The position numbers and the translations under genes are program-made. Below the pieces are notes generated by a model. It did no database searches, was not told the origin of the DNA, and saw only the letters and a list, made by a program, of their open reading frames with translations. A stretch of DNA of 64,000 nt from Clostridia bacterium. GTDB taxonomy: Bacteria; Bacillota; Clostridia; Oscillospirales; CAG-272. Shown piece by piece: positions 17,169-40,785 of this stretch; the stretch's first letter is position 1, and each line of letters starts with the position of its first letter. The DNA is taken from positions 12,008 through 76,007 of the forward strand of contig JAFSMU010000010.1 of the NCBI GenBank assembly GCA_017447775.1. The letters run 5' to 3'.

Positions 17169-17194
17169 CGGGCGGCTTTTGCCGCCCGTTTTTT
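17169..17194 (+). terminator. intrinsic terminator after the XRE gene
   Basis: cgggcggc-tttt-gccgcccg followed by tttttt. Confidence 0.75.
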
Positions 17195-17420: not shown

Positions 17421-17501
17421 TTGACTTTTGTTGTTTTTGGTTTATTTTTGCGAAGATTTTATCAAAAACATATTGACAACAAACAACATTTGTGATATTT
17501 T
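17421..17501 (+). promoter_or_regulatory. two tandem promoter-like boxes upstream of the GRE/BMC operon
   Basis: TTGACT-16 nt-TATTTT (17421-17448) and TTGACA-17 nt-TATTTT (17473-17501). The flanking ttgttgttt / aaacaaca segments form an imperfect inverted repeat and are possible operator sites. Confidence 0.35.
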
Positions 17502-17533
17502 TAGAATAGAATATTTTGAGGAGGAATGTACTT

Positions 17534-20062
17534 TTGAAAAAATACTTTTCCGATAAAATACCGAAAAGCGACAGGATAACAAGGCTTGTCGAAAATCTAT
17601 ATAGAAAGATGCCGGAGATAGAAGCTGACCGCGGCGTGCTTATTACGGAATCATATAAGCAGACCGAGGGTGAGCCGATAATCACTCGCCGCGCCAAGGC
17701 GTTTGCACATATACTTGACAATATCCCGATCACCATTCGTGACGAGGAGCTTATCGTCGGCTCGGCGACAAAAGCGCCGCGCGGCTGTCAGGTGTTCCCG
17801 GAGTATTCATACGAATGGCTCGAAGCGGAGTTTGACACTGTCGAAACGCGCGTTGCCGATCCGTTTTACATATCGGAAGAAACCAAAAAGACTCTTCACG
17901 AAGTATATAAATACTGGAAAGGCAAGACTGTTTGCGAGCTTGCCACATCGTATATGGATCCGAACGCGCTCGCGTCGTTTAGACACGATATGTTCACGCC
18001 GGGCAACTACTACTTCAACGGCATCGGACACGTCACAGTCGACTATCCGAAGGTACTTCGCATCGGATATCGCGGCATTATCGATGAAGCGAAGGCGGCA
18101 AGGGAAAAGCTCTCCGTCGCCGACGCGGACTTTGCAAAGCGTTCACACTTCCTTGACGCGGTGATAATGAGCTGCGAGGCGGCGATCCGCTACGCAAAAA
18201 GATACAGCGCACTTGCGGCAAAGGAAGCGAAAAACACTTCCGACATGAAGCGCCGCGCCGAGCTTGAAAATATTTCGCGCATTTGCGATTACGTCCCCGA
18301 ACACGGCGCGACATCGTTTTACGAGGCGCTGCAAAGCTTTTGGTTCGTGCAGATGCTTATACAGATGGAGTCGAGCGGACACTCGATCTCGCCGGGGCGT
18401 TTCGATCAGTATATGTACCCTTATTTCAAAGCGGACATCGACGCGGGGAAGATCACGCGCGAGTTTGCACAGGAGCTTATCGACTGCGTTTGGGTTAAGC
18501 TCAACGATCTCAACAAATGCCGCGACGCTGTAAGTGCCGAGGGATTTGCCGGGTACAGCCTTTTCCAGAACCTCATCGTCGGCGGCCAGGATATTCACGG
18601 GCTGGACGCTACAAACGATTTGTCGTTTATGTGCATTGACGCTACAATGCACGTATTCCTTCCTCAGCCGTCATTCTCGATAAGAGTATGGAACGGCTCG
18701 CCGCACGAGCTGCTCATCCGCGCCGCGGAGCTGACGCGCACGGGCATCGGATTCCCGGCTTATTACAATGATGAAGTTATCATACCGCAGCTTCTTTCTC
18801 GCGGACTGAAGATCGAAGAAGCGCGCGATTACAACATAATCGGTTGCGTTGAGCCGCAGAAAGCGGCGAAGACGGACGGCTGGCACGACGCGGCGTTCTT
18901 CAATATGTGCCGCCCGCTCGAGCTGGTGTTCTCAAACGGCGTCGACAAGGGCGTTCAGCTCGGGCCGAAAACGGGCGACGTTACGAAGTTCACAACGTTT
19001 GACGAGTTCTACGGCGCATATAAAAAGCAGATGGAATTTTTCATCGAAATGCTCGTCAACGCCATCAACGCCATCGACGTGGCACACGCCGAAAGATGCC
19101 CGCTCCCGTTTGAATCCTCTATGGTTGACGACTGCATAGCTCGCGGCAAGAGTCTGCAGGAAGGCGGCGCCGTCTATAACTTCACAGGGCCGCAGGGATT
19201 CGGGATCGCCAACATGGCCGACGCGATGTGGGCTGTGAAAACGCTTGTTTTTGAACAGCATAAATACACTCTCGCCGATTTCAAAGAGGCGATGGACAAC
19301 AACTACGGCGAGGAAACGGACGCTCATCACGCGGAAAAACTGACAAAAGCCGTCGTTTCGGAGATCGTCAAGACAGGCCGCGCGATAAGCGAGGGCGATA
19401 TCGCAACGATATACAAAGAGGTACGCAAAAACAACTGCACCGAAGAACAGAAAAAGAAATACCGCGCGCTCCGCGAGGATATAGACGCGCTTCCGAAATT
19501 CGGCAACGACATCGACGAGGTCGACTCGTTTGCAAGGGAAGTTACATACACGTACACGCGCCCGATGGAAACGTATAAAAATCCGCGCGGCGGGCACTTC
19601 CAGGCAGGACTGTATCCCGTTTCGGCGAATGTGCTACTCGGCGGACAGACGGGACCGACGCCCGACGGCAGACTCGGATTCACACCTGTTGCTGACGGCG
19701 TAAGCCCGGCGGCAGGCAGAGATGTTAAAGGCCCGACGGCGGCGGCGAACTCCGTTTCTCGCATCGACCATTTCATCGCGTCAAACGGCACGCTGTTCAA
19801 TATGAAATTCCACCCGACGGCGCTCGCAGGCACGCAGGGACTCGAAAACTTCGTGGCACTGGTTCGCGGATACTTCGACAGGAAGGGCTCGCATATGCAG
19901 TTCAATGTCGTCAGCCGCGAAACGCTGCGCGACGCGCAGAAGAACCCCGATAAATACCGTTCGCTCGTCGTCAGAGTCGCGGGTTACAGCGCACTGTTCA
20001 CTACGCTTTCAAGAGCGCTTCAGGACGATATCATAAAACGCACGGAGCAGGGAGAATTCTGA
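17534..20062 (+). CDS. glycyl radical enzyme, dehydratase-type (probable B12-independent 1,2-propanediol dehydratase)
   Basis: PFL-fold length. The glycyl radical motif RVAGYS has its Gly codon at 19982-19984. The thiyl loop GCVEP has Cys at 18845-18847 and Glu at 18851-18853. Start preferred at TTG 17534, 9 nt after GAGGAGG; the track start is TTG 17516. Confidence 0.9.
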   Translation: MKKYFSDKIPKSDRITRLVENLYRKMPEIEADRGVLITESYKQTEGEPIITRRAKAFAHILDNIPITIRDEELIVGSATKAPRGCQVFPEYSYEWLEAEFDTVETRVADPFYISEETKKTLHEVYKYWKGKTVCELATSYMDPNALASFRHDMFTPGNYYFNGIGHVTVDYPKVLRIGYRGIIDEAKAAREKLSVADADFAKRSHFLDAVIMSCEAAIRYAKRYSALAAKEAKNTSDMKRRAELENISRICDYVPEHGATSFYEALQSFWFVQMLIQMESSGHSISPGRFDQYMYPYFKADIDAGKITREFAQELIDCVWVKLNDLNKCRDAVSAEGFAGYSLFQNLIVGGQDIHGLDATNDLSFMCIDATMHVFLPQPSFSIRVWNGSPHELLIRAAELTRTGIGFPAYYNDEVIIPQLLSRGLKIEEARDYNIIGCVEPQKAAKTDGWHDAAFFNMCRPLELVFSNGVDKGVQLGPKTGDVTKFTTFDEFYGAYKKQMEFFIEMLVNAINAIDVAHAERCPLPFESSMVDDCIARGKSLQEGGAVYNFTGPQGFGIANMADAMWAVKTLVFEQHKYTLADFKEAMDNNYGEETDAHHAEKLTKAVVSEIVKTGRAISEGDIATIYKEVRKNNCTEEQKKKYRALREDIDALPKFGNDIDEVDSFAREVTYTYTRPMETYKNPRGGHFQAGLYPVSANVLLGGQTGPTPDGRLGFTPVADGVSPAAGRDVKGPTAAANSVSRIDHFIASNGTLFNMKFHPTALAGTQGLENFVALVRGYFDRKGSHMQFNVVSRETLRDAQKNPDKYRSLVVRVAGYSALFTTLSRALQDDIIKRTEQGEF

Positions 20063-20850
20063 TGGAAGAGTACATGAACATAAAAGGCAGGATATTCGAT
20101 ATCCAACGCTTTTCCGTTCATGACGGGCCGGGGATACGCACGATAGTTTTCCTCAAAGGGTGCTATCTCCGCTGCCGCTGGTGCTGTAATCCCGAATCGC
20201 AGGAATATAAAATTCAAGAGATGACCCTCGCCGGGAAGACGAAGATCGTCGGCCGCGACGTTACCGTCGCCGAGGTCATGACCGAGGTCGAGCGCGACCG
20301 AGTTTACTACGATCGCTCCGGCGGCGGACTTACGCTTTCGGGCGGCGAGTCGCTCGCGCAGCCCGAGTTTGCGCCGGCACTGCTTCGCGCGGCAAAGGAG
20401 AGCGGCATCAATACTGCGATGGAATCGACGGGATTTGCCGAGTGGGCGGTCATTGAGAAGTATCTGCCGTATCTCGACACCTACCTCATGGACATAAAGC
20501 ATATAAACAGTGAAAAACACAAGGCGTTCACAACTCAGCCAAACGAGCTGATACTTGAAAACGCAAAAAAAATAGCGAAAAACGCGAAAAAGCTTATAAT
20601 CCGCACCCCGGTGATACCTACGTTCAACGCAACGCCCGAGGAGATACGCGATATCGCAAGATTTGCAAAATCGCTCGGCACGGTAAGCGAGATGCATATA
20701 CTGCCGTATCACCGCATCGGCTCGGATAAATACGCCGGGCTTGGGCGCGATTATACGCTGAAAGGCATCGAGCCGCCGTCGAAGGAACTGATGAACGAAC
20801 TGCTCGAAGTTGTCAATTCCGAAGGGCTTCGCGGACAGATAGGAGGGTAA
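20062..20850 (+). CDS. glycyl-radical enzyme activating enzyme (radical SAM), minimal PflA-like form
   Basis: CYLRCRWC is the CX3CX2C radical SAM motif, with GGE downstream. There are only four cysteines in total, so no auxiliary ferredoxin-like insert. TGATG overlap with the GRE stop. Confidence 0.92.
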   Translation: MEEYMNIKGRIFDIQRFSVHDGPGIRTIVFLKGCYLRCRWCCNPESQEYKIQEMTLAGKTKIVGRDVTVAEVMTEVERDRVYYDRSGGGLTLSGGESLAQPEFAPALLRAAKESGINTAMESTGFAEWAVIEKYLPYLDTYLMDIKHINSEKHKAFTTQPNELILENAKKIAKNAKKLIIRTPVIPTFNATPEEIRDIARFAKSLGTVSEMHILPYHRIGSDKYAGLGRDYTLKGIEPPSKELMNELLEVVNSEGLRGQIGG

Positions 20851-20851
20851 A

Positions 20852-21229
20852 ATGGACTTTGAAAAGATAGCAAATTCCGAGGGGAAAATGCGAATTATTC
20901 AGGAGAGCGTTCCGGGCAAACAGATAACGCTTTCTCACATCATCGCAAACCCCGACGCGCTCCTTTACCGCAAGCTCGGGCTCGATCCGTCGGTCGAATA
21001 CAGCGCGACGGCGATCGGAATTATGACGATTTGCCCCAGCGAAACGGCGATCATCGCCGCCGACATCAGCATGAAGGCGAGCGGCGCGCGACTCGGATTC
21101 GTCGACCGCTTCAGCGGAACGGTCATTATCACGGGGACGGTTTCGGAGGTTGAATCGGCGCTTGTCGCCGTCAACGAGTACGCCGAAAAGAAACTCGGAT
21201 ATGCCGTGTGCGAAATCACGAAAACGTAA
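20852..21229 (+). CDS. pduU: circularly permuted BMC-H shell protein (PduU/EutS type)
   Basis: 125-aa ORF with a PduU/EutS-like sequence (RIIQESVPGKQITLSHIIANP...GIMT...AIIAADI..KASG). Confidence 0.85.
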   Translation: MDFEKIANSEGKMRIIQESVPGKQITLSHIIANPDALLYRKLGLDPSVEYSATAIGIMTICPSETAIIAADISMKASGARLGFVDRFSGTVIITGTVSEVESALVAVNEYAEKKLGYAVCEITKT

Positions 21230-21648
21230 TGAAAAAAATAATTCTTATCGGGCGCTCGGGCGTCGGCAAAACGACGCTGAAGCAAGCTATGAGAAAAGAA
21301 AAAATCGAATATCACAAAACGCAGTACGTCGATTGGAGCGACTACATCATCGACACGCCGGGCGAGTACGTGGAAAACAAAAATCTGAGCTGCGCGCTCG
21401 GACTATACGCATACGAGGCGGACGTTGTGGGGCTGCTGCTCTCGGCTGACGACTGGTTCTCGGTCTATTCTCCGAATATGGTGGGACTTGTCAACCGCGA
21501 CGTCATCGGCATCGTAACAAAAACCGACCTCGCGTCGCCTAAAAGCGCGGAGCTTTGGCTTGAACTTGCGGGATGCAAAAAGATTTTCAAAGTGAACTCG
21601 ATCACGGGCGAGGGCGTTGATGAGATAGTCGAATACCTAAAACAGTAA
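21229..21648 (+). CDS. eutP: EutP/PduV-family small GTPase
   Basis: The P-loop GRSGVGKTTL follows MKKIILI. TAATG overlap with pduU. Typical length of about 140 aa. Confidence 0.85.
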   Translation: MKKIILIGRSGVGKTTLKQAMRKEKIEYHKTQYVDWSDYIIDTPGEYVENKNLSCALGLYAYEADVVGLLLSADDWFSVYSPNMVGLVNRDVIGIVTKTDLASPKSAELWLELAGCKKIFKVNSITGEGVDEIVEYLKQ

Positions 21649-21683
21649 ATAAAAAAATAAACATAAATCACAAGGAGACAAAA

Positions 21684-22490
21684 ATGGCAACTGTAAACGA
21701 ATATGAGATCAAAAAACAGATCTGCGACATCGGCAAGAGAATTTACAATCGCGGAATGGTAGCAGCCAACGACGGCAACATCTCCGTTAAGCTGAACGAC
21801 CACGAATTCCTCTGCACACCGACAGGCGTATCGAAGGGCTTTATGACTCCGGAATACATCTGCAAGGTCGATGAAAAGGGAAACGTAATTCAGGCAAACG
21901 CGGGCTTCAAACCGTCGTCCGAGATCAAAATGCACATGCGCGTTTATGAAAAACGCCCCGACGTAAAGAGCGTCGTTCACGCACACCCGATGTACGCGAC
22001 AAGCTTCGCTATCGCAGGTATCCCGCTTACTCAGCCGATCATGCCCGAGGCGGTAATCGCTCTCGGATGCGTTCCGATAGCAGAGTACGGATGCCCCTCG
22101 ACAGAGGAGATACCCGACGCCGTTGAAAAGTACCTCCCGTACTTTGACGCAGTCCTTCTTGCAAATCACGGCGCACTGACGTATTCCGATTCGCTCCTCG
22201 CGGCTTACATGAAGATGGAATCGGTGGAGTTCTACGCTCAGCTTCTGTACCAGTCGAGAGTTCTCGGCGGCCCGAAGGAATTCACACCCGAGCAGGTCGA
22301 GCAGCTTTATGAGATCAGAAGAAAATTCGGTATGAAGGGTAAACACCCCGCAAACGTATGCCTTAATGTCAAAGACGGCAAGCCCAGCTGCCACGGCTGC
22401 GGCGGCAACTGCCACAAATCAGCTCAGGGCGACGACTCAGCGCTCGTTGCAGAGATCACAAAGAGAGTAATGGAGCAGCTCGGCAAATAA
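21684..22490 (+). CDS. class II (metal-dependent) sugar-phosphate aldolase, fuculose/rhamnulose-1-phosphate aldolase-like, with C-terminal extension
   Basis: Aldolase_II motifs VVHAHPMYAT and LLANHGALTY. About 49 extra C-terminal residues contain C-x9-CHGCGGNC and the amphipathic helix SALVAEITKRVMEQL. Confidence 0.88.
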   Translation: MATVNEYEIKKQICDIGKRIYNRGMVAANDGNISVKLNDHEFLCTPTGVSKGFMTPEYICKVDEKGNVIQANAGFKPSSEIKMHMRVYEKRPDVKSVVHAHPMYATSFAIAGIPLTQPIMPEAVIALGCVPIAEYGCPSTEEIPDAVEKYLPYFDAVLLANHGALTYSDSLLAAYMKMESVEFYAQLLYQSRVLGGPKEFTPEQVEQLYEIRRKFGMKGKHPANVCLNVKDGKPSCHGCGGNCHKSAQGDDSALVAEITKRVMEQLGK

Positions 22491-22506
22491 TCTTTCAGGT
22501 GAGATT

Positions 22507-22986
22507 ATGAACGAAAAAATCATAAAAGATACCGTAGACGCTATCGTTGAAGAATACGTGCGCCCGACAAATGATATGACGCTTGCGGCGGCGGACAGGC
22601 TTTGCGAAAAGGTGCTGAAATACGCCAAAGAAAAAGGCGTAAACGCCGTTGTGGCCATATCAAACAAAGGCGGACACCCCGTATGCGTCAAATGCGCGGA
22701 CAATTCGTTCATCGCAAGTTATGATATCGCACTGAATAAAGCGTTCACCGTTGTGTCGCTCAAAATGACGACAAAGGAGCTTTCCACGCTCGCCGCACCG
22801 GGCGGATCGCTTTACGGAATACAGTTCACAAACGGCGGCAGGATCGTGATTTTCGGCGGCGGCGAACCGCTGAAAAATAAAAACGGCGATATCATCGGCG
22901 GCCTCGGCGTTTCCGGCGGAACGGAAGAGCAGGACACCGCGATAGCAAAATACGGTAGAGAAATATTTGAGAAAGGAACGAAATAA
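22507..22986 (+). CDS. GlcG/DUF336 (PduO C-terminal-domain-like, haem-binding family) protein
   Basis: 159-aa ORF with a GlcG-like core (GVNAVVAISNKGGHPV..., GGGEPL...G.IIGGLGVSGGT.EQD). About 22 extra N-terminal residues are present (EKIIKDTVDAIVEEYV). Confidence 0.8.
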   Translation: MNEKIIKDTVDAIVEEYVRPTNDMTLAAADRLCEKVLKYAKEKGVNAVVAISNKGGHPVCVKCADNSFIASYDIALNKAFTVVSLKMTTKELSTLAAPGGSLYGIQFTNGGRIVIFGGGEPLKNKNGDIIGGLGVSGGTEEQDTAIAKYGREIFEKGTK

Positions 22987-22987
22987 A

Positions 22988-24184
22988 ATGGATGTAAATT
23001 CCGCTAATATCGAACAGATAGTCAAGCAAGTCCTCGCACAGATGAGCGGAGCCGGCACGGCGCCGAAAGCAAACGGCCCTATTCCGAAAACGGCTCGCGT
23101 TGCGATGCTCACAAAGCTTGAACACTTCGACGTTCGCGAGTTTCCGATCCCCGAGCTTGGCGACGACGATATCCTCGTCAAAGTCGAAGGATGCGGCGTA
23201 TGCGGCACGGACGCTCACGAGTTCAAGAGAGATCCGTTTGGTCTTATCCCGGTCGCTCTCGGCCACGAGGGAACGGGCGAGATCGTGAAAATGGGCAAAA
23301 ATGTAAAAAAAGACAGCGCCGGAAAGCCACTCGCTGTCGGCGACAAGGTCGTAACGTGTATGATATTCAAGGACAACCCCGATATCACAATGTTCGACCT
23401 CAATAAACAGAACGTGGGAGGTGCTGACGTTTACGGTCTTCTTCCGGACGACGATTATCACCTCAACGGCTGGTTCTCCGACTACATACTCGTCAGAGGC
23501 GGTTCGACGATATTCAACGTAAGCGACCTCGACCTCGATTCAAGAATACTTATCGAGCCGTGTGCGGTGCTTGTTCACGCGGTAGAGCGCGCAAAGACGA
23601 CGGGCATACTCCGCTTCAACTCGCGCGTTGTAGTTCAGGGATGCGGTCCTATCGGACTTATCTGCATTGCAGTCCTTCGCACGATGGGTATTGAGAACAT
23701 CGTCGCTGTCGACGGCAACGAACAACGCCTTGAATTCTCGCACCAGATGGGAGCGGGCGCACACGTCAACTTCAAAAACTACAAGGGCATCGAGGAGCTT
23801 GCTCAGGGCGTCAAGGACGCATTCGGCGGGTACCTTGCGGACTTTGCGTTCCAGTGCACCGGCTCTCCGGCAGGCCACTCGAACATTTATAAATTCATTC
23901 GCAACGGCGGCGGCCTTTGCGAGCTGGGATTCTTTATCAACGGCGGAGATGCTACGATAAATCCGCATTTCGATATATGCTCAAAGGAGATCACAACAGT
24001 CGGTTCGTGGGTATACACGCTCCGCGACTACGCGACAACGTTTGATTTCTTAAAGAGAGCGCAGGCGATCGGACTTCCGATGAAGAAGCTCATAACGCAC
24101 AAATTCCCGCTTGATAAGATCAACGATGCGTTTATAACGAATCTCAAACAGGAAGGTCTTAAAATAGCGATAGTCAATGAATGA
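22988..24184 (+). CDS. zinc-dependent medium-chain alcohol dehydrogenase with N-terminal encapsulation-peptide-like helix
   Basis: MDR motifs GCGVCGTDAHEF and GHEGTGEIV, plus the Rossmann motif VVVQGCGPIGL. The N-terminus SANIEQIVKQVLAQMS plus an A/P/G linker precedes the catalytic domain. Start ATG 22988 is preferred over the track start at 22967. Confidence 0.88.
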   Translation: MDVNSANIEQIVKQVLAQMSGAGTAPKANGPIPKTARVAMLTKLEHFDVREFPIPELGDDDILVKVEGCGVCGTDAHEFKRDPFGLIPVALGHEGTGEIVKMGKNVKKDSAGKPLAVGDKVVTCMIFKDNPDITMFDLNKQNVGGADVYGLLPDDDYHLNGWFSDYILVRGGSTIFNVSDLDLDSRILIEPCAVLVHAVERAKTTGILRFNSRVVVQGCGPIGLICIAVLRTMGIENIVAVDGNEQRLEFSHQMGAGAHVNFKNYKGIEELAQGVKDAFGGYLADFAFQCTGSPAGHSNIYKFIRNGGGLCELGFFINGGDATINPHFDICSKEITTVGSWVYTLRDYATTFDFLKRAQAIGLPMKKLITHKFPLDKINDAFITNLKQEGLKIAIVNE

Positions 24185-24201
24185 TCAGGAGAAACGACGC
24201 A

Positions 24202-24516
24202 ATGGGAAAAGCGGTTGGAATAGTTGAAGTATACGGACTTGTGGCGGCGTTCGCGGCGTGCGACGCGGGCTGCAAAGCCGGCAACGTAACTGTTGAAAGG
24301 TTTGACAAAAACAAGCCCGCGAATGCGGACAGCCTTCCGGTTCCGCTGCTTGTGGCGGTAAAATTCCGCGGCGACGTATCCGACGTCGAAATGGCGGTCG
24401 AGGCGGCGCTTGAAGCCGCAAAACGCGTCAGCGGAGTAGTTACGTCCCACATCATCCCAAACGTCGAACAAGACACGGAAAAAATGCTGAAGATCAGCGG
24501 ATTTGACAAAGACTAA
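24202..24516 (+). CDS. divergent BMC-H shell protein with enlarged pore loop
   Basis: BMC-domain core AVGIVEVYGLVAAFAACDAGCKAGNV. The canonical K-I-G-S-G pore segment is replaced by FDKNKPANADSLPVP. Start ATG 24202 lies behind caggaga. Confidence 0.8.
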   Translation: MGKAVGIVEVYGLVAAFAACDAGCKAGNVTVERFDKNKPANADSLPVPLLVAVKFRGDVSDVEMAVEAALEAAKRVSGVVTSHIIPNVEQDTEKMLKISGFDKD

Positions 24517-24525
24517 GGAGCACGG

Positions 24526-24828
24526 ATGAAAGCACTCGGATTTATTGAAATAACGGGCGTTGTCGCCGCGCTTGACGCGCTTGATATCATGTGCAAATCG
24601 GCTGACGTAAGCCTTGTCACATGGGAACGCAAGCTCGGCGGAAGACTTGTAACGCTCGTCGTCGAAGGCGACGTGTCGGCGGTGACAGCCGCTGTGGATA
24701 ACGCGGTCAAGCTGTCGATAAAAAAGCCCGCGGCGCATCTGGTCATACCGAATCCTCACTCGGAAACGCGAAGGATAGTTGAGCTAAGCGCTTCGCGCCT
24801 TAAAAACAAGGAGGCAAAAAATGGCTGA
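24526..24828 (+). CDS. divergent BMC-H shell protein with basic pore motif and K-rich tail
   Basis: [26 protein letters not shown]. The pore segment is RKLGGRL, and the C-terminal tail is [11 protein letters not shown]. Confidence 0.82.
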
Positions 24829-24877
24829 CGAAATTAAAAAAACAAATACAAACACAAAAATCAAGGAGGAAACAAAA

Positions 24878-25156
24878 ATGGCACTTGAAGCACTCGGAAT
24901 GGTAGAAACAAGAGGACTTGTAGCGGCGATCGAAGCAGCCGATGCAATGGTTAAAGCGGCAAACGTAAGACTTATCGGCACACAGAAGATCGGCAGCGGA
25001 CTCGTATCCGTTATGGTTCGCGGCGATGTCGGCGCAGTTAAAGCTGCAACGGAAGCCGGCGGCGCAGCAGCTTCCAAGCTCGGCGAAGTTATTGCGGTTC
25101 ACGTAATTCCTCGCCCGCACTCAGACGTTGAGAAGATACTTCCTTCCATCGACTGA
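24878..25156 (+). CDS. pduA: canonical BMC-H shell protein (PduA/PduJ type), copy 1
   Basis: [30 protein letters not shown]...[24 protein letters not shown] aggagg lies 7 nt upstream. An alternative in-frame ATG at 24821 also has a good RBS and would add 19 residues. Confidence 0.9.
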
Positions 25157-25210
25157 TAAATAAAGAAAAAAACAAAAAAATAAAATAAAAAATTTTTGGA
25201 GGAAACAAAA

Positions 25211-25489
25211 ATGGCACTTGAAGCACTCGGAATGGTAGAAACAAGAGGACTCGTAGCAGCGATCGAAGCTGCCGACGCTATGGTTAAAGCGGCAAACGTT
25301 ACTCTTATCGGCACGGAAAAGATCGGTAGCGGACTCGTATCCGTTATGGTTCGCGGCGATGTCGGCGCAGTTAAGGCTGCAACGGAAGCCGGCGGCGCAG
25401 CAGCTTCCAAGCTCGGCGAAGTTATTGCGGTTCACGTAATTCCTCGTCCGCACACGGATGTTGAGAAGATCCTTCCCGTTCTCAAATAA
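25211..25489 (+). CDS. pduA: canonical BMC-H shell protein (PduA/PduJ type), copy 2
   Basis: Near-identical paralogue of copy 1, including the RBS ggaggaaacaaaaATG, offset by 333 nt. Confidence 0.9.
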
Positions 25490-25517
25490 TAGAGAAACAG
25501 CTTAAAACCTCAAAGCT

Positions 25518-25549
25518 CCGTTTGCCGCGGATAATACCGCGGCAAACGG
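25518..25549 (+). promoter_or_regulatory. intra-operon stem-loop after the major shell genes
   Basis: ccgtttgccgcgg-ataata-ccgcggcaaacgg is a perfect 13-bp stem. It is followed by aaaagtcc, so there is no U-tract. Confidence 0.55.
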
Positions 25550-25584
25550 AAAAGTCCGTTCAAAATACGAAAGGATAATATATC

Positions 25585-25863
25585 ATGATAGTTGGAAAAG
25601 TTATCGGAAGCATAGTTTCCACGCGTAAAAATGAAAACCTTGTCGGCAACAAATTTATGGTTATCGAGCCGATAGAGGGTATGGGCGTTAAAGAAAACAG
25701 AATAGTCGCCATAGATAATATCGGCGCCGGCATCGGCGAGCTTGTGCTCGTTGCGCTCGGAAGCGCCGCAAGAATAGGATGCAATATGGAATCAGCCCCC
25801 GTTGACGCCGCGATAGTCGGTATTGTCGACGACGGTATCGGAATGTCCGGAGTGATAAAATAA
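25585..25863 (+). CDS. eutN: BMC-P pentameric vertex protein (EutN/CcmL/PduN family)
   Basis: 92-aa ORF, MIVGKVIGSIVSTRKNENLVGNKFMVIEP... Confidence 0.9.
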   Translation: MIVGKVIGSIVSTRKNENLVGNKFMVIEPIEGMGVKENRIVAIDNIGAGIGELVLVALGSAARIGCNMESAPVDAAIVGIVDDGIGMSGVIK

Positions 25864-27189
25864 ATGAAAATAGACGAATTGTCAATGCTCCTTCGCAATG
25901 CGGGCATCGTCGGATGTGGCGGGGCGGGGTTTCCGTCTTATGCAAAACTTAAGGATGGCATTGATACCGTTATACTCAACTGCGCGGAATGCGAGCCGCT
26001 TTTGAGACTGCACAGACAGCTTATGGAAAAGCGCGCGTATGAAATTCTCAGCGCACTTGACTTGACTGCGAAAACTCTCGGCGCGAAAAATGTTGTAATC
26101 GGGCTTAAATCGGCGTACAAGAACGCGATAGCGGCCATCGAGAAGAACATTGCGTCGTTCAACAATATAAATATTTGCAAGCTCCGCGAGGTTTATCCCG
26201 CGGGAGATGAGGTCGTGCTGATTTACGAGGCAACGGGCAGGATAGTTCCTCCCGGAAGTCTTCCGGCGTCTGTCGGCGTTGTCGTTTTCAACGTCGAAAC
26301 GATGTATAATCTCTACCGTGCAACGCAGGGAAAAAACGTAACGCACAAGTACGTAACGGTTGCGGGCGAGGTCAAATCGCCGCGCACGTACCTTGCGCCG
26401 ATAGGGATGACGCTCGGCGAGCTTATAGACATGTCGGGCGGGGAAACGACGGAAAACCCCGCGTACCTTCTCGGCGGGCCGATGATGGGCTCGCTCGGCT
26501 CGCGCGAGGACGTCGTTACAAAGACGACAAACGCCGTCATCGTTCTGCCGGACGACCACTATGTCGTCATGCGGAAAAACACGAAGATCTCCATCGACCT
26601 CAAGCGTGCCATGGCGGCGTGCTGTCAGTGCAGATACTGCACAGATATGTGCCCGCGCAACCTGCTCGGACACCCGATCGAGCCGCACATGCTTATGCGC
26701 GTTGCGTCAAACAGAGATACGCACAATACAGAGCCGTACCTCAACACGTTTTTCTGCTCGGGGTGCGGCGTGTGCGAAATGTACGCCTGCTTCCAGGGAC
26801 TCTCGCCGCGAACACTTATCGGCGCGGTGAAGGGCGGGCTTCGCGCGTCGGGCGTAAAAGCTCCGAAAATCGAAAAAGAGCCGTCGCCGGTACATAACAG
26901 AGAGCTTCGCCGCGTGCCGCTTTCGCGGCTTCGCGCAAGGCTCGATCTTGAAAAATACAACCGCTCAGCTCCGATGACGGACGAAGCTATCGAACCGAGC
27001 GAGGTCAAAATCCTGCTTTCTCAGCATATCGGCACGCCGAGCGTGGCGTGCGTCAAATGCGGAGATATGGTCACTGCAGGCGACGTTGTGGCAAAAGCCG
27101 AGGATGGAAAGCTCGGTGTTGATATCCACTCATCGATATCAGGCAAAGTTACGGACGTAACAGACAAATTCATCATTGTAAGGAGGTAA
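25864..27189 (+). CDS. pduS: PduS/RnfC-like flavin and iron-sulfur oxidoreductase
   Basis: GCGGAGFPSY is the NuoF/RnfC-type nucleotide site. There are two cluster motifs, CCQCRYCTDMCP and CSGCGVCEMYAC. The C-terminus has a barrel-sandwich-like tail. Confidence 0.85.
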   Translation: MKIDELSMLLRNAGIVGCGGAGFPSYAKLKDGIDTVILNCAECEPLLRLHRQLMEKRAYEILSALDLTAKTLGAKNVVIGLKSAYKNAIAAIEKNIASFNNINICKLREVYPAGDEVVLIYEATGRIVPPGSLPASVGVVVFNVETMYNLYRATQGKNVTHKYVTVAGEVKSPRTYLAPIGMTLGELIDMSGGETTENPAYLLGGPMMGSLGSREDVVTKTTNAVIVLPDDHYVVMRKNTKISIDLKRAMAACCQCRYCTDMCPRNLLGHPIEPHMLMRVASNRDTHNTEPYLNTFFCSGCGVCEMYACFQGLSPRTLIGAVKGGLRASGVKAPKIEKEPSPVHNRELRRVPLSRLRARLDLEKYNRSAPMTDEAIEPSEVKILLSQHIGTPSVACVKCGDMVTAGDVVAKAEDGKLGVDIHSSISGKVTDVTDKFIIVRR

Positions 27190-27193
27190 CACC

Positions 27194-27742
27194 GTGGGAC
27201 GCGCACTTGGACTTGTTGAATATAAAACCGTTTCATCGGGCATTACCGCCGCCGATCTTATGGTAAAAACGGCAGAGGTCGACGTCATACAGGCTGAAAC
27301 TGTCTGCCCGGGTAAATACTTTGTTCTTGTCGAGGGCGAGCTTGCGGCAGTCCGCGCCGCAGTCGACACGGCAAGCGCGGCATATCCCGATAAGCTTATA
27401 GACAATTTCGTGCTTGGCAACCCGCACGATTCTATCTTTGAGGCGATCTGGGGTACGGCGAGCGTATCAGAGCCGAAGTCGCTAGGGATACTTGAAACAT
27501 ATTCCGTCGCGGCGGCAATCGTTGCGGCCGATACGGCGGCAAAAACAGCCGACGTAACGCTTATCGAGCTTCGTCTTGCTCGCGGTATGTGCGGAAAATC
27601 ATATCTGCTTTTAACGGGAGAGGTCGCGGCTGTCAGCGCGGCGATAGACAAGGCAAAGGCGGGAGCGGGCGACGAGGGAATGTTCCTTGACAGCTCCGTG
27701 ATCGCAGGACCGGACAAAAAAATGTGGGAGAAAATTCTCTGA
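27194..27742 (+). CDS. pduT: tandem-domain BMC-T shell protein (PduT type) with pore cysteine
   Basis: Two BMC domains are present (LGLVEY...VCPGKYFVLVEG and LGILETY...MCGKSYLLLTG). Cys38 is at codon 27305-27307, the position of the PduT [4Fe-4S] ligand. GTG start after aggagg. Confidence 0.85.
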   Translation: MGRALGLVEYKTVSSGITAADLMVKTAEVDVIQAETVCPGKYFVLVEGELAAVRAAVDTASAAYPDKLIDNFVLGNPHDSIFEAIWGTASVSEPKSLGILETYSVAAAIVAADTAAKTADVTLIELRLARGMCGKSYLLLTGEVAAVSAAIDKAKAGAGDEGMFLDSSVIAGPDKKMWEKIL

Positions 27743-27754
27743 TCGGAGGGACGT

Positions 27755-28513
27755 ATGTTTGCAATAGAAAGACGCAGCGCCATTCTTGAACAGCTCAGTT
27801 CCGAGGGAAAGGTCGTCGTATCGGAGCTTGCGGTTCGCTTCGGTGTAACCGAGGAAACGGTGCGGCGCGATATAGACAAGCTCGCAAGGGAAGGCCTTGC
27901 GACGAAAACCTACGGCGGCGCGGTATCGAACGTTTCGCCAAGCAGTGATCTGCCGTACAACGTTCGCAAGCGTTTCAACGTCGATCTCAAACAAAACATC
28001 GCCGAAAAAGTTGCCGCAATGATAAACGACGGCGACCGCATCATGCTCGACGCATCGACAACGGCGATATACGTTACCCGCAAAATCAAAAGCAAGAAAA
28101 ACATAACCGTCATCACAAATTCCGTCGAGATACTTCTTGAACTTGCCGATAAATCGGGCTGGACTATCCTTTCCACCGGCGGCACGCTGAAAGAGGGTGC
28201 GTTCTCGATGGTAGGCATTTCCGCCGAAAAAATGGTGCGCGGTTATCACGTCGACCTTGCGGTTTGCTCCGCCAAGGGCATCGACGAAAAAATGGGCATT
28301 ACAGATTCAAACGAAAAGGATTCGGAAATGAAGCAGGCCATCTTCTCGTCTGCGGACAAAAAAGTGCTTGCGCTCGATTCCACAAAGTTTGATAAAATTT
28401 CCTTTGTCAAAGTCTGCGACGTGCGCGACGTTGACATAATAGTTACGGACAAGGCACCGAGCGAGTCGTGGCAAACACGCCTGAGCGAAAACGGCGTAAA
28501 ACTGATATATTAA
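27755..28513 (+). CDS. DeoR-family transcriptional regulator
   Basis: N-terminal DeoR HTH (RRSAILEQLSSEGKVVVSELAVRFGVTEETVRRDI) and a C-terminal DeoR sugar-phosphate-sensor domain. Confidence 0.9.
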   Translation: MFAIERRSAILEQLSSEGKVVVSELAVRFGVTEETVRRDIDKLAREGLATKTYGGAVSNVSPSSDLPYNVRKRFNVDLKQNIAEKVAAMINDGDRIMLDASTTAIYVTRKIKSKKNITVITNSVEILLELADKSGWTILSTGGTLKEGAFSMVGISAEKMVRGYHVDLAVCSAKGIDEKMGITDSNEKDSEMKQAIFSSADKKVLALDSTKFDKISFVKVCDVRDVDIIVTDKAPSESWQTRLSENGVKLIY

Positions 28514-28522
28514 GGAGACATT

Positions 28523-29719
28523 ATGAAAATTCTGGTCATCAATTCCGGATCGTCATCGCTGAAATATCAACTTTTCGATATGGAAAGCGGAAACGTCCTT
28601 GCAAAAGGCGGCTGTGAGCGCATAGGCGCCGGCGGCGCCGTTACACATAAGGTGCCGGGCAGAGAAAACTACAGCATCGAGGTCGATCTTCCGTCGCACG
28701 ACCGTGCGCTTGAAATCGTTTTCGGCCTGCTTACCGACAAAGAGCACGGCGTTATTTCAAGCATTGACGAGATCGACGCCGTCGGGCACAGAGTGGCGCA
28801 CGGCGGGGAAAAGTACACAAAGTCCTCGCGCGTTGACGACGAAATGATAAACTACCTTGAAACGATCGTCCCGATAAATCCGCTTCACGGGCCTCCGGCG
28901 ATAAAGGGAATGCGCGCGTGCGTAAGACTTCTTCCGAAAACGCCGCAGGCGGCTGTATTCGATACGTCGTTTTACTCGGATATTGAAGATTTCAGATATA
29001 TTTACGCGCTTCCTTATGAATACTACACCGAGGACGGCGTGCGCCGTTACGGATTCCACGGAACGTCCCACAGATACGTTTCGCAAAAGACGGCGGAATT
29101 CCTCGGCAAAGACGTAAAGACGCTGAAAATGATCACCTGCCACCTCGGTAACGGCTCGTCGATAACGGCTGTCGACGGCGGCAAAGCGATAGATACGTCA
29201 ATGGGATTTACTCCGCAGGAAGGCATCCCGATGGGAACGAGAAGCGGCTCGATAGATCCGACGATCATCCCGTTCATAATGAAAAAGCACGGCCTTTCGC
29301 CCGACGAAATGGCAGACGTGCTGAATAAAAAATCGGGACTTCTCGGAATAACAGGTCTTTCAAACGACTTCCGCAACTGCCTTGCCGCGTCAAACGAAGG
29401 CAACGAGCGCGCAACTCTTGCGCTTAAAATGCTCTCTAACGGCATCAAGAAAATAATCGGTTCGTACGTTGCGGAGCTTAACGGGCTTGACGTGCTTGTG
29501 TTCACGGCGGGCATCGGCGAAAATCAGTATGAACTGCGCCGCATGGTATGCGAAAATATGGATGCGCTCGGCATCGTCATCGACGAGGAGAAAAACAAAA
29601 ACTTCACCCGCGGCATCCCGTTTGACATCACGGGCGAAAAATCAAAGGTAAAGGTACTCATCGTCCCCACGGACGAAGAATATATGATCGCGCTGGACAC
29701 TCAGCGTTTGTGTAAGTGA
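28523..29719 (+). CDS. ackA: acetate/propionate kinase
   Basis: MKILVINSGSSSLKYQL... and GFHGTSHRYV are canonical AckA. In this context it plays a PduW-like role. Confidence 0.93.
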   Translation: MKILVINSGSSSLKYQLFDMESGNVLAKGGCERIGAGGAVTHKVPGRENYSIEVDLPSHDRALEIVFGLLTDKEHGVISSIDEIDAVGHRVAHGGEKYTKSSRVDDEMINYLETIVPINPLHGPPAIKGMRACVRLLPKTPQAAVFDTSFYSDIEDFRYIYALPYEYYTEDGVRRYGFHGTSHRYVSQKTAEFLGKDVKTLKMITCHLGNGSSITAVDGGKAIDTSMGFTPQEGIPMGTRSGSIDPTIIPFIMKKHGLSPDEMADVLNKKSGLLGITGLSNDFRNCLAASNEGNERATLALKMLSNGIKKIIGSYVAELNGLDVLVFTAGIGENQYELRRMVCENMDALGIVIDEEKNKNFTRGIPFDITGEKSKVKVLIVPTDEEYMIALDTQRLCK

Positions 29720-29727
29720 GGTATGAT

Positions 29728-31176
29728 ATGGCTCAGATGACAGAAAATGAAATAAAAGACATCGTTGCGAAGGTCCTCGGACAGATGCAAAGTATGAAGC
29801 CCGCATCGGCTGACTGGGACAGCACACAGTACGGCGGCAGAAAGTTCATCGGTATTTACGAAGATATGAACGAAGCCATTGAAGCGGCAAACCGCGGATA
29901 CAAGGCTGTTCGCGCCATGAGCGTTGAGGAAAGGGAAAAGATCATAACCGAAATCCGCAAACTCACGCGTGAGGAAGCGGCTACAATGGCGGCACTCGGC
30001 GTTGCGGAAACAAAAATGGGAAGAGTTGAGCACAAAAGACTCAAACACCTCCTTGTCGCAGACAAAACGCCCGGCACGGAAGATATCGTATCGACAGCAA
30101 AAACGGGCGACAACGGTCTTACGCTTATCGAAATGGCGCCGTTTGGCGTTGTCGGAGCTATAACGCCCTCAACAAACCCGAGTGAAACTGTTATATGCAA
30201 CTCCATCGGTATGATCGCCGCCGGAAACGGCGTCGTATTCAACCCTCACCCCGGCGCTATAGCGACGTCGAACTACGCCGTTGACCTTGTCAACCGCGCG
30301 TGCCGCGCGGCGGGCGGTCCCGACGTGCTTGTATGCTCGATGAAGAAGCCGACAATGGAAAGCGCCGCTATAATGCAGTCGCACCCGCTTATAAAACTGC
30401 TCGTTTGCACGGGCGGCCCCGGAGTAGTCAAGGCTGTTCTTTCATCCGGCAAAAAGGCAATAGGCGCGGGAGCGGGCAATCCCCCCGTCATCGTCGACGA
30501 CACGGCTGACATTCAGAAAGCCGCAAAGGACATCATCGACGGATGCACGTTTGACAACAACCTGCCGTGCATCGCAGAAAAAGAAGTATTCTCGTTTGAC
30601 AACATCACCGACGAGCTTATCGCCGGTATGAAACGCGCAGGCTCGTATCAGATCACACGCGCGCAGGCGGACGAGCTTGCAAAGATAGTGCTTGTCGAAA
30701 AGACGAAAAAGGACGGCACAACGGTAAAAACAGTCAACCGCGACTGCGTTGGCAGAGATGCGGACGTTCTCCTTTCAAAGATTGGCGTTTCCGTCGGCAA
30801 GGACGTGCGCTGCATCATCGCCGAGGTGCCGTTTGAGCATCCGTTTGTTCAGGAAGAACTTATGATGCCGATACTCGGCATCGTTCGCGTCAAAGATATC
30901 GACGAGGCGATCGACCTCGCGTGCAAAGCAGAAGCGGGCCGCCGTCACAGCGCACATATGCATTCAAAGAATATCGACAACCTTTCGCGCTTTGCAAAGG
31001 CGGTCGAAACGACGATCTTCGTCAAAAACGCTCCGTCATACGCCGGTATCGGCTTTGGCGGTGAAGGACATACGACGTTCACGATAGCCGGCCCGACAGG
31101 CGAGGGCATCACGTCCGCGCGCTCGTTCACGCGCCAGCGCCGCTGCGTTATGGCGGACAGCTTCAGAATAATCTGA
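29728..31176 (+). CDS. pduP: CoA-acylating aldehyde dehydrogenase (PduP/EutE family) with N-terminal encapsulation peptide
   Basis: The ALDH fold has catalytic Cys context NNLPCIAEKE. The N-terminus is TENEIKDIVAKVLGQMQS. ATG 29728 is preferred over the track GTG at 29716. Confidence 0.9.
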   Translation: MAQMTENEIKDIVAKVLGQMQSMKPASADWDSTQYGGRKFIGIYEDMNEAIEAANRGYKAVRAMSVEEREKIITEIRKLTREEAATMAALGVAETKMGRVEHKRLKHLLVADKTPGTEDIVSTAKTGDNGLTLIEMAPFGVVGAITPSTNPSETVICNSIGMIAAGNGVVFNPHPGAIATSNYAVDLVNRACRAAGGPDVLVCSMKKPTMESAAIMQSHPLIKLLVCTGGPGVVKAVLSSGKKAIGAGAGNPPVIVDDTADIQKAAKDIIDGCTFDNNLPCIAEKEVFSFDNITDELIAGMKRAGSYQITRAQADELAKIVLVEKTKKDGTTVKTVNRDCVGRDADVLLSKIGVSVGKDVRCIIAEVPFEHPFVQEELMMPILGIVRVKDIDEAIDLACKAEAGRRHSAHMHSKNIDNLSRFAKAVETTIFVKNAPSYAGIGFGGEGHTTFTIAGPTGEGITSARSFTRQRRCVMADSFRII

Positions 31177-31187
31177 CGGAGGAAAGT

Positions 31188-31859
31188 ATGCAGTACGATG
31201 CAAAAACCATATCTGAAATAGTCAGCAAGGTCGTGGCGTCCGTTAACTCCGGCGCGCAGTCGTCATCGGCGTCATCTGACGGCGATATTCCCGTCGGCGT
31301 ATCAAACAGACATATCCACTTGACAAGAGAACACCTTGACATCCTTTTCGGCGCAGGATATGAGCTTACGCCGCTCAAAGACCTCTCCCAGCCGGGACAG
31401 TACGCCTGCAAAGAGCAGCTCACGCTTATCGGCCCGTCACTCAGAGCAATTGAGGGCGTGCGCGTACTCGGGCCGCTTCGCAAGGCGTCGCAGGTCGAAA
31501 TATCGAGAACGGACAGCTATACGCTGAAAGTAAAGCCGCCCGTAAGGGAATCGGGAGATGTGTCAGGCTCCGCTCCGATAACGATAGTCGGCCCGAAGGG
31601 AATAGTACAGCTTAAAGAGGGCTGCATCATCGCCAACCGCCATATACATATGAGTCCCGCGGACGGCGAAAAATACGGCGTTTCCGACGGCGATTACGTT
31701 GCGGTACAGACTGTCGGCGACGGCAAGCGCACAACGCTTTACGACGTTCAGATACGCGTATCCGATAAATTTGTGCTTGAAATGCACCTTGACACCGACG
31801 ACGCAAACGCTTGCGGGATCGGCAACGGAGCGAAAGTTAAGCTTATAAAGGAAAACTGA
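31188..31859 (+). CDS. pduL: phosphate propanoyltransferase PduL with N-terminal encapsulation peptide
   Basis: Duplicated PduL motifs VSNRHIHLTREH and ANRHIHMSPAD. The N-terminus KTISEIVSKVVASVNSG is followed by a Ser-rich linker. Confidence 0.92.
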   Translation: MQYDAKTISEIVSKVVASVNSGAQSSSASSDGDIPVGVSNRHIHLTREHLDILFGAGYELTPLKDLSQPGQYACKEQLTLIGPSLRAIEGVRVLGPLRKASQVEISRTDSYTLKVKPPVRESGDVSGSAPITIVGPKGIVQLKEGCIIANRHIHMSPADGEKYGVSDGDYVAVQTVGDGKRTTLYDVQIRVSDKFVLEMHLDTDDANACGIGNGAKVKLIKEN

Positions 31860-31890
31860 AAAAAGGCGCCTGTCGGCGCCTTTTTATTTT
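31859..31890. terminator. bidirectional terminator between pduL and the convergent FkbM gene
   Basis: aaaaaaggcgcc-tgtc-ggcgcctttttatttt. The minus-strand stop codon lies in the T-run. Confidence 0.75.
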
Positions 31891-36931: not shown

Positions 36932-37007
36932 TGGAGCTGGTAACCGGAATCGGACCGGTGACCTCGTCATTACCAATGACGTGCTCTACCGACTGAGCCA
37001 TACCAGC
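36932..37007 (-). tRNA. tRNA-Thr (anticodon GGT) with non-canonical T-loop
   Basis: The reverse complement is GCTGGTA TG GCTC AGTCGGTA GAGC A CGTCA TTGGTAA TGACG AGGTC ACCGG TCCGATT CCGGT TACCAGC T CCA. This is a full cloverleaf, but position 55 is C rather than U. Confidence 0.8.
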
Positions 37008-37516: not shown

Positions 37517-37634
37517 TTGCGTTCTCCTTTCAGCCTTTTTCAGTATTTTACCATGTTTTTTCATCAAAGTCAATAGAGAGGAAAACAAAGCGAAAAAAAC
37601 GAAAACAAAAAAACGACAAATTTGCCTTAAATTA

Positions 37635-40721: not shown

Positions 40722-40750
40722 TTGACTTAATCGACATAATATGATAAAAT
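40722..40750 (+). promoter_or_regulatory. sigma-A type promoter of the mannosidase gene
   Basis: TTGACT-17 nt-TAAAAT. The first ATG of the track ORF (40741) lies inside this spacer/-10 region. Confidence 0.45.
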
Positions 40751-40785
40751 TATATCAAAGAATAAATATCAGAAAGGGCGACAAG

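Follow-up and report, generated by a model that had tools for sequence, protein, structure and literature searches.

A GRM5-type glycyl radical enzyme microcompartment operon, very probably serving deoxy-sugar phosphate use, in an uncultured gut Clostridia bacterium

We have analyzed an operon of 18 genes that lies in a 64-kb stretch of DNA (64,000 nucleotides of contig JAFSMU010000010.1, called the window here) from an uncultured gut Clostridia bacterium. The operon is a complete bacterial microcompartment (BMC) operon of type GRM5, one of the classes of glycyl radical enzyme microcompartment (GRM), and very probably serves to make propionate from deoxy-sugar phosphates. An earlier note, made from the letters of the window, had assigned the genes to the aldolase-containing class described for Clostridium phytofermentans and Roseburia inulinivorans, and this assignment stands: every published feature of GRM5 that can be sought in a sequence is found here. 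The note was also right that the class is known; the 2021 catalogue holds 216 GRM5 loci (PMC8217296 supplement).

A complete GRM5-type gene set

The literature defines GRM5 by a propanediol-type glycyl radical enzyme (GRE) with an insertion, an activase without ferredoxin insert, an aldolase of family PF00596 and an alcohol dehydrogenase (ADH) of families PF00107/PF08240 (PMC6325248; PMC4207490). PduS and PduT occur in all loci (57/57), GrpU is absent, and DeoR, DUF336 and hydrolase proteins are accessories (PMC6325248; PMC4207490). In the window a GRE (PF02901 and PF01228) and its activase (PF04055) are encoded together with BMC shell genes. The GRE is of the propanediol type and has an internal insertion of about 60 residues and no N-terminal encapsulation peptide (EP), while the activase is without the ferredoxin-like insertion of about 70 residues. 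The class II aldolase ends in a C-terminal EP, predicted as a helix, and a zinc-dependent ADH stands in place of an iron-dependent one (Fe-ADH). PduS and PduT are present and GrpU is not; DeoR, a DUF336 protein and the core of aldehyde dehydrogenase (AldDH) and phosphotransacylase complete the set. The GlcG/DUF336 protein, PduV, DeoR and PduS are standard GRM5 accessories and not peculiarities of this locus (PMC4207490; PMC3557285).

The 18 genes are consecutive and co-directional on the + strand, from 17534 to 31859, the first of their open reading frames (ORFs) being open from 17516. Pfam assigns a family to every one of them with E-values between 1e-11 and 1e-247, so the family assignments are not due to chance, and the families named in the earlier note were all recovered. 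None of the 18 genes matches a B12-dependent diol dehydratase, reactivase or adenosyltransferase in Pfam, as the note had also stated. Coordinates and matches are collected in Table 1.

Table 1. Genes of the operon and signals at its borders, with the matches that identify them
Feature	Position	Strand	Match or remark
Terminator hairpin closing the upstream helix-turn-helix (HTH) gene	17169-17188		
Promoter-like site, TTGACA-17-TATTTT with TG	17473-17501	+	Consensus scan only; in the 378-nucleotide (nt) leader before the GRE gene
Glycyl radical 1,2-propanediol dehydratase (predicted), 842 amino acids (aa)	17534-20062	+	Pfam PFL-like 8.9e-247, Gly_radical 1e-35
GRE-activating radical SAM enzyme, 262 aa	20062-20850	+	Pfam Radical_SAM 1.7e-18, Fer4_12
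Circularly permuted BMC-H, PduU/EutS type	20852-21229	+	Pfam BMC
PduV/EutP small GTPase	21229-21648	+	Pfam PduV-EutP 1.5e-50
Class II (zinc, dihydroxyacetone phosphate (DHAP)-dependent) aldolase, 268 aa	21684-22490	+	Pfam Aldolase_II (PF00596) 7.3e-49
GlcG/DUF336 protein (HbpS-like, PduO C-terminal-domain-like)	22507-22986	+	Pfam HbpS-like 7.3e-34
Zinc-dependent medium-chain ADH, 398 aa	22988-24184	+	Pfam ADH_N and ADH_zinc_N (PF08240 and PF00107)
Four BMC-H genes	24202-24516, 24526-24828, 24821-25156, 25211-25489	+	Pfam BMC 5e-20 to 8e-29
BMC-P pentamer (vertex) protein	25585-25863	+	Pfam EutN_CcmL 1e-28
PduS-like flavin/Fe-S oxidoreductase	25864-27189	+	Pfam Complex1_51K 1.7e-43, SLBB, Fer4_17, RnfC_N
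PduT-type tandem-domain BMC-T	27194-27742	+	Pfam BMC twice, 2.6e-45
DeoR-family regulator (sugar-phosphate-sensing type)	27755-28513	+	Pfam HTH_DeoR, DeoRC 1.4e-48
Acetate/propionate kinase (PduW equivalent)	28523-29719	+	Pfam Acetate_kinase 7e-140; TIGR00016 474 bits, above cutoff
CoA-acylating propionaldehyde dehydrogenase PduP	29728-31176	+	Pfam Aldedh; PRK15398 670 bits, above cutoff
PduL phosphotransacylase	31188-31859	+	Pfam PTAC 6.5e-77; NCBIfam phosphate propanoyltransferase 264 bits, above cutoff
Palindromic GC-rich hairpin, A and T runs on either side	31860-31885		

The extent proposed earlier, 17516-31890, holds for the locus as such and not for its ends, which move to the most likely GRE start at 17534 and to the last stop codon at 31859. 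Gene starts were revised from public gene calls on contigs that carry an identical aldolase; these calls place a later start in five genes (GRE, a TTG codon at 17534; PduV, 21229; ADH, 22988; the first BMC-H, 24202; PduP, 29728). The TTG is most likely the true start of the GRE, rather than 17516, and gives a protein of 842 aa whose length is in register with that of the R. inulinivorans enzyme. For the fourth BMC-H gene the ATG at 25211 is the more likely start. With the revised starts the junctions between genes measure -8 to +95 nt, in agreement with the tiny or overlapping junctions first described. The hairpin that directly follows the last stop codon probably acts as a terminator in both directions and also serves the convergent gene for an FkbM methyltransferase (31884-32966, - strand). 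An Rfam search found no riboswitch or other known RNA in the leader or the intergenic gaps; its only matches in the window, a thiamine pyrophosphate (TPP) riboswitch and a tRNA, are both outside the locus.

The glycyl radical enzyme and its activase

Both motifs on which the earlier note had relied are present in the GRE, with Gly817 in RVAGYS and Cys438 and Glu440 in GCVE. Its best match in the PDB is the R. inulinivorans diol dehydratase (RiDD; 5i2a, 1253 bits), followed by the glycerol dehydratase of C. butyricum (1041 bits); the choline, hydroxyproline and isethionate enzymes rank far lower. Identity to 5i2a, an enzyme characterised in both its biochemistry and its structure, is 64% over 838 aa in a gap-free alignment, with the N-terminus in register with RiDD, and identity to the glycerol dehydratase is 59%. 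Positions of the substrate pocket were mapped through HMMER alignments to 5i2a and 1r8w, with the residue numbers in use for RiDD and glycerol dehydratase. This mapping is supported because it reproduces the expected numbering (His166, Phe344, Cys438, Glu440, Val696, Gly817). All catalytic residues are kept, the conserved set being His166, His283, Ser284, Cys438, Glu440, Asp452, Tyr694 and Gly817. The two positions that separate the propanediol enzyme from glycerol dehydratase, where polar residues that bind glycerol are exchanged, are Tyr339 to Phe344 and Ser642 to Val696. At both of these the window GRE agrees with the propanediol enzyme (Phe at 344, Val at 696).

The GRE also contains a 58-aa insertion (about residues 594-651 of the 842-aa form) that is missing from glycerol dehydratase. 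An internal insertion of about 60 aa forms the intramolecular EP of the GREs of GRM3/4/5 (PMC6325248; PMC5311937), and by alignment the insertion corresponds to this element. The comparison as a whole supports a pocket like that of propanediol dehydratase and not like those of the glycerol, choline, hydroxyproline, isethionate or sulfopropanediol enzymes. The earlier note had itself proposed that a pocket resembling the choline, hydroxyproline or isethionate enzymes would overturn its reading; the pocket found is of the propanediol type.

The activase has only four cysteines, all in the motif CX3CX2CC. It shows no ferredoxin-like insert and no Pfam Fer4 pair domain, and it matches the NCBIfam model TIGR02494 above cutoff (299 bits) in two stretches, between which the insert region of the model is skipped. 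The ferredoxin-like insertion of about 70 aa is found in the activases of other GRMs and is missing in GRM5 only (PMC6325248).

The aldolase and its linker

The aldolase consists of a FucA-like core (residues 1 to about 217), a linker with four cysteines and a histidine, and a C-terminal amphipathic helix (residues 252-265, nt 22437-22478). The core matches the FucA structures in the PDB with E-values of 1e-18 to 1e-25. A residue comparison with E. coli FucA shows that the zinc ligands His92, His94 and His155 and the catalytic Glu73 are conserved in the aldolase and in 20 of 20 sampled homologues, and so are the phosphate-site residues Ser71/Ser72, Gly28/Asn29 and Thr43/Gly44. Judged from its sequence the protein belongs to a separate, BMC-associated subfamily of class II aldolases, for which a FucA/RhaD-like action is an inference. 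In the catalogue this aldolase has a model of its own that is specific to GRM5, and the haem-degrading-like (DUF336) protein has one that is GRM-wide (PMC8217296 supplement).

In an AlphaFold2 model the core and the C-terminal helix are confident (predicted local distance difference test, pLDDT, of about 84 for the helix), and the linker (residues 218-250) has a pLDDT below 50 and no confident fold. Class II aldolase EPs are located at the C-terminus (PMC4594438), and the modelled helix 252-265 is accordingly placed as an encapsulation helix. The linker carries the motif H221-P-A-x2-C226-x9-C236-H237-x-C239-x3-C243 (nt about 22344-22412), which is invariant in 61 of 61 aligned aldolase homologues. 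The strict four-cysteine pattern occurs in 107 of 120 proteins, and genomic matches that depart from it keep the four cysteines with a different spacing of the last one. An earlier account of this linker described it as unconserved, yet unusually rich in cysteine (PMC4594438). It is possible, if rather doubtful, that the motif binds metal as a zinc knuckle or an Fe-S cluster, in which case the metal or redox state would govern how the entry enzyme is packaged or how active it is. Such a role would add an unrecognised control or electron-relay element to a microcompartment already known for many Fe-S proteins.

The aldolase search scored 8000 candidate proteins, all with E-values of 1e-10 or less, the best 120 of which are at least 79% identical to the query. 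Relatives were confirmed in at least 581 GTDB species genomes. Identical copies of the protein came up solely on metagenome contigs (ENA, Logan), of which the longest measures 298 kb, and the nearest named relatives are metagenome-assembled Clostridia genomes from animal guts. Across the related loci no other protein of the operon is as well conserved as the aldolase (77-91% identity, compared with 63-78% for the GRE), an argument that the aldolase is an integral part of the system rather than a passenger.

Other enzymes, regulator and shell

The zinc-dependent ADH has an N-terminal extension of about 35 aa with an EP-like helix (NIEQIVKQVLAQM), and among the models of the BMC catalogue is one for a GRM5-specific EP of this ADH (PMC8217296 supplement). 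The enzyme is proposed to act as lactaldehyde reductase, the role that the literature assumes for it, and/or as propanol dehydrogenase. This assignment comes entirely from context. The enzyme has no close solved or curated relative: in the PDB it matches 1vj0 best (122 bits), it passes the cutoff of no NCBIfam model, and it groups among the medium-chain dehydrogenases/reductases of the sorbitol and threonine dehydrogenase kind. PduP is closest in the PDB to the C. phytofermentans BMC AldDH (4c3s/5dbv, 581-585 bits), ahead of GRM3 AldDH (498-503 bits). Encapsulation helices are predicted at the N-termini of PduP (EIKDIVAKVLGQM) and PduL (TISEIVSKVVASV). A hydrophobic-moment scan for such helices discriminated weakly, and the EP assignments were made on position, a shared I/V-V-x-x-V-L/M pattern and published descriptions.

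In PduS the RnfC_N domain is at the C-terminus, which might reflect a permutation; the catalogue gives the same three Pfam domains for PduS without their order (PMC8217296 supplement). The nearest relatives of the DeoR protein in NCBIfam are AgaR, GlpR, SrlR and FucR, all below cutoff.

The shell set of the operon comprises six BMC-domain genes and one EutN_CcmL gene. The last two of the four BMC-H genes are a tandem duplicate: a direct repeat of 300 nt (24836-25135 and 25169-25468) has 91% identity at a spacing of 333 nt. The first copy has a lysine- and threonine-rich N-terminal extension of 19 residues. PduT retains its pore cysteine (ETVCPGK). The permuted BMC-H protein matches 4axi, 3cgi (PduU) and 3i96 (EutS) best, with E-values of 3e-33 to 1e-28. 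GrpU was considered in place of PduU and ruled out, the PDB search matching PduU/EutS only. A cysteine of PduU in the sequence TICPSE is not a conserved Fe-S ligand, because it is replaced by Ser or Thr in 55 of 59 relatives.

Related loci

We compared 80 related genomic loci, 56 of which could be classified by gene order. The same gene set, GlcG included, recurs in dozens of Clostridia genomes, with the aldolase in a fixed position right after PduV and, in the loci with mapped layouts, GlcG directly after the aldolase. The most frequent order (type A, 39/56) is the C. phytofermentans-like arrangement GRE-AE-PduU-PduV-aldolase-GlcG-PduP-ADH-BMC-H-PduL-BMC-P-PduS-PduT-DeoR, where AE is the activating enzyme. 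The order of the window (type B, 12/56) has DeoR-(AckA)-PduP-PduL at the 3' end; five of the 12 include the kinase gene AckA, and an acetate/propionate kinase lies inside the locus in a minority of relatives only. The remaining five loci have neither order. PduP, PduL and DeoR of the window are clearly more similar to their counterparts in type B loci, which suggests that GRM5 contains two sub-lineages.

Seven of the 80 related loci (L017, L020, L021, L032, L046, L071 and L082) have an L-rhamnose isomerase and/or an FGGY kinase beside or within the operon, and their aldolases are 77-83% identical to that of the window. The isomerase RhaA of L032 matches its Pfam family at 1e-180; in L071 (7100-10800) RhaA and a rhamnulokinase-like FGGY kinase are directly upstream of the aldolase. 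The attachment of these genes to related GRM5 operons provides genomic support for rhamnulose-1-phosphate as the aldolase substrate.

Other recurrent neighbours are a PHP hydrolase (24 loci), an Fe-ADH (13), a HAD hydrolase (12) and a NUDIX protein (4), none of which occurs in the window. The PHP-domain protein, upstream of the operon on the opposite strand in the 24 relatives, measures 262 aa in one example (L033, 8772-9560, - strand) and probably corresponds to the 'hydrolase' named among the GRM5 proteins in 2014. A Pfam search of 128 representative flanking ORFs found nothing recurrent besides RhaA/FGGY, PHP, HAD, Fe-ADH and NUDIX. Apart from these the flanking genes vary from locus to locus, as would fit an operon that moves horizontally.

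Proposed pathway and its substrate

From gene content, motifs and homologies, with the individual steps taken over from homologues, the following pathway can be proposed. L-rhamnulose-1-phosphate and/or L-fuculose-1-phosphate would be made in the cytosol by enzymes encoded elsewhere and then enter the shell, and the same sugar-1-phosphate is the likely inducer sensed by DeoR. The encapsulated aldolase would cleave it to DHAP, destined for glycolysis, and L-lactaldehyde, which the encapsulated ADH would reduce with NADH to 1,2-propanediol. Inside the shell the GRE, activated by its radical SAM partner, would convert propanediol to propionaldehyde. PduP would oxidize this to propionyl-CoA and regenerate NADH, balancing that spent by the ADH; PduL would then form propionyl-phosphate, and the operon's own acetate/propionate kinase would yield propionate and ATP. 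Some propionaldehyde may go to propanol. The shell would be built of the four BMC-H proteins, the permuted PduU, the trimer protein PduT and the pentamer protein, and the electrons needed to activate the GRE probably come from, or pass through, PduS and PduT. Cargo would be targeted by short amphipathic helices, N-terminal in ADH, PduP and PduL, C-terminal in the aldolase and internal in the GRE.

L-rhamnulose-1-phosphate and/or L-fuculose-1-phosphate is by far the most likely substrate of the aldolase. These two are favoured because the upstream genes are unlinked in the model organism, because rhaA and rhaB are linked in relatives and because the GRE pocket is suited to a methyl group. In C. 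phytofermentans the fucose genes (Cphy_3153-3155 and 2010-2012) lie outside the BMC locus (Cphy_1174-1187) and far from it by gene number, as does the rhamnose transporter (Cphy_0580-0584); the rhamnose enzymes (Cphy_1146-1149) are about 25 genes upstream (PMC3557285). That locus is nevertheless induced 15-87-fold on fucose and rhamnose, and BMCs have been seen (PMC3557285; PMC6325248). The earlier note had correctly found no fucose or rhamnose isomerase, kinase or permease within 15 kb of the operon, an absence that extends to the 64 kb of the window; its view that the substrate was therefore an open question was overstated, given this lack of linkage in C. phytofermentans and the seven relatives with attached rhaA and/or FGGY genes.

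Several observations weigh against such a substrate or such a pathway. A Pfam scan of the main flanking ORFs of the window detected no isomerase, kinase, mutarotase or dedicated permease for fucose or rhamnose, and RhaA and rhamnulokinase-like (FGGY) queries had no tblastn match anywhere in the 64 kb. The seven loci linked to rhaA and/or FGGY genes are all of type A order. The aldolase is only about 30% identical to solved or characterised FucA and passes no equivalog cutoff of NCBIfam/TIGRFAM (PRK06833, 119 bits against a cutoff of 264; TIGR01086, 78 against 400); its top match, itself below threshold, is the model for 3-oxo-tetronate-4-phosphate decarboxylase. On the aldehyde side the FucA residues Tyr113, Phe131, Phe206 and Tyr209 are replaced by Met, Pro, Arg and Phe, which are invariant within the subfamily, the loop alignment being uncertain at this level of identity. 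Our literature search found no biochemical assay of a GRM5-class aldolase or zinc-dependent ADH, both of which are termed proposed or putative.

These observations raise the question of whether another sugar-1-phosphate feeds the organelle, such as D-ribulose-1-phosphate, L-xylulose-1-phosphate or another 6-deoxy-ketose-1-phosphate. With the pentulose phosphates the products would be glycolaldehyde, ethylene glycol and then acetaldehyde and acetate, which would suit an organism without fucose or rhamnose pathways. E. coli FucA also cleaves D-ribulose-1-phosphate, and the kinase of the operon is a generic acetate/propionate kinase; to these may be added the sub-threshold FucA/RhaD scores, the unlike aldehyde-side residues and the lack of fucose and rhamnose genes within 64 kb. 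We nevertheless judge this alternative improbable. Homologous loci respond to fucose and rhamnose, and unlinked upstream genes are usual in the model organism (PMC3557285). The aldolases found next to rhaA and/or an FGGY kinase are 77-83% identical to that of the window, and the hydrophobic Phe/Val pair of the GRE fits the methyl group of propanediol.

Gut microbes commonly cross-feed on propanediol, and the operon might serve simply to scavenge 1,2-propanediol released by neighbouring microbes, with the aldolase and ADH cytosolic or vestigial. The core of GRE, PduP and PduL would suffice for this, as it does in GRM3 (PMC5311937). Such a use as the sole function is very unlikely, given that the aldolase exceeds all other proteins of the locus in conservation, has a C-terminal encapsulation helix and keeps its place after PduV, and that the ADH also has a GRM5-specific EP; scavenging is moreover compatible with deoxy-sugar use and would be an added capability rather than a true alternative. 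The remaining alternative, that the GRE is another eliminase (glycerol dehydratase, choline trimethylamine-lyase, hydroxyproline dehydratase, isethionate lyase or sulfopropanediol dehydratase), draws on the difficulty of distinguishing these enzymes by annotation (PMC13450708). It could also appeal to the identity to glycerol dehydratase, little below that to the propanediol enzyme, and to the fact that in NCBIfam the GRE is above cutoff only for the broad subfamily model TIGR01774. The equivalog models for CutC, HypD, HpfG/HpsG and indoleacetate decarboxylase, however, all score it far below their cutoffs, the diol dehydratase leads its PDB ranking by more than 200 bits, both discriminating pocket positions are of the propanediol type and the EP insertion is present, so that a different eliminase is extremely improbable.

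Comparison with known microcompartments

The locus shares with Cphy_1174-1187 and the R. inulinivorans GRM5 locus the GRE with internal EP, the short activase, PduU, the aldolase with C-terminal EP, the zinc-dependent ADH, BMC-H paralogues, PduL, BMC-P, PduS, PduT and DeoR. R. inulinivorans also carries pduV- and pduO-like genes (PMC3557285), and PduV and DUF336 are common to it and the window. The window differs from the common GRM5 arrangement in that PduP and PduL are 3' of DeoR and an acetate/propionate kinase is inserted. Its DeoR gene runs in the direction of the other genes and sits close between its neighbours within the operon, while that of C. phytofermentans is reported as a separate transcript.

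Three other systems are partly similar. GRM3 (Rhodopseudomonas palustris BisB18, E. coli CFT073) has a B12-independent propanediol dehydratase with internal EP, PduP and PduL chemistry, and acetate kinase and DUF336 accessories (PMC4207490; PMC5311937), but it has neither aldolase nor zinc-dependent ADH, its activase contains the ferredoxin-like insert and many of its loci encode GrpU. The PVM and PVM-like loci of Planctomycetes and Verrucomicrobia use a homologous class II aldolase with C-terminal EP as the entry enzyme for fucose and rhamnose and also include a DeoR regulator and acetate kinase (PMC4207490); they are without a glycyl radical enzyme. The Pdu system of Salmonella enterica has homologues of PduP, PduL, the PduW-type kinase, PduU, PduT, PduS and PduV, but relies on B12-dependent PduCDE, a reactivase, an adenosyltransferase, an Fe-ADH (PduQ) and PocR, none of which is found in the window locus.

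Genomic surroundings

To judge from their sequences, the genes flanking the operon are housekeeping genes or unrelated to it. Upstream are rpoA, nusA, infB, a GHL6 glycosidase, a Na/Pi transporter, a beta-helix protein and an XRE-type HTH protein. Downstream are genes for the FkbM methyltransferase, a DivIVA-domain protein, a fumarase subunit, a GGDEF protein, the tRNA, smpB, a MatE transporter, threonine dehydratase, a GH38 mannosidase, an ABC transporter and a thiamine operon behind the TPP riboswitch, with hrcA-dnaK-dnaJ-prmA farther on. The G+C content of the locus (about 0.50-0.55) is slightly above that of most neighbouring sequence (about 0.45-0.52), and no integrase or repeat boundary was seen around it in the window. 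The tRNA gene (36935-37007, - strand), which adjoins smpB (37052-37588, - strand), lies some 5 kb past the 3' end of the operon; neither an integrase nor a repeat was observed to suggest that this tRNA gene served as an insertion site.

The TPP riboswitch (54815-54912, 72.9 bits) heads the segment 53500-54912 on the - strand. It is followed by a multi-pass membrane protein of 223 aa (54105-54776), probably part of a thiamine transporter, and by thiamine pyrophosphokinase (53500-54192). The GHL6-family glycoside hydrolase (11463-13442), 4 kb upstream of the operon, has a sub-threshold match to the alpha-L-fucosidase family (E-value 6.6e-4, 19.7 bits against a cutoff of 25.2), and the GH38 mannosidase is at 40741-43800. 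A link of these two enzymes to glycan foraging is possible.

Significance

GRM5 is a main route by which gut Clostridia convert fucose and rhamnose of host or plant origin to propionate, a short-chain fatty acid relevant to health. The locus described here is a known system, and its new biology is confined to taxonomic extension and a rearranged operon: the window copy extends GRM5 into uncultured, non-Lachnospiraceae Clostridia, in an operon with its own propionate kinase. Two modest leads emerge from the comparison. The linkage of rhaA and rhaB to the aldolase in some related loci backs a substrate that has long been inferred, and the conserved cysteine/histidine motif in the aldolase linker may merit attention.

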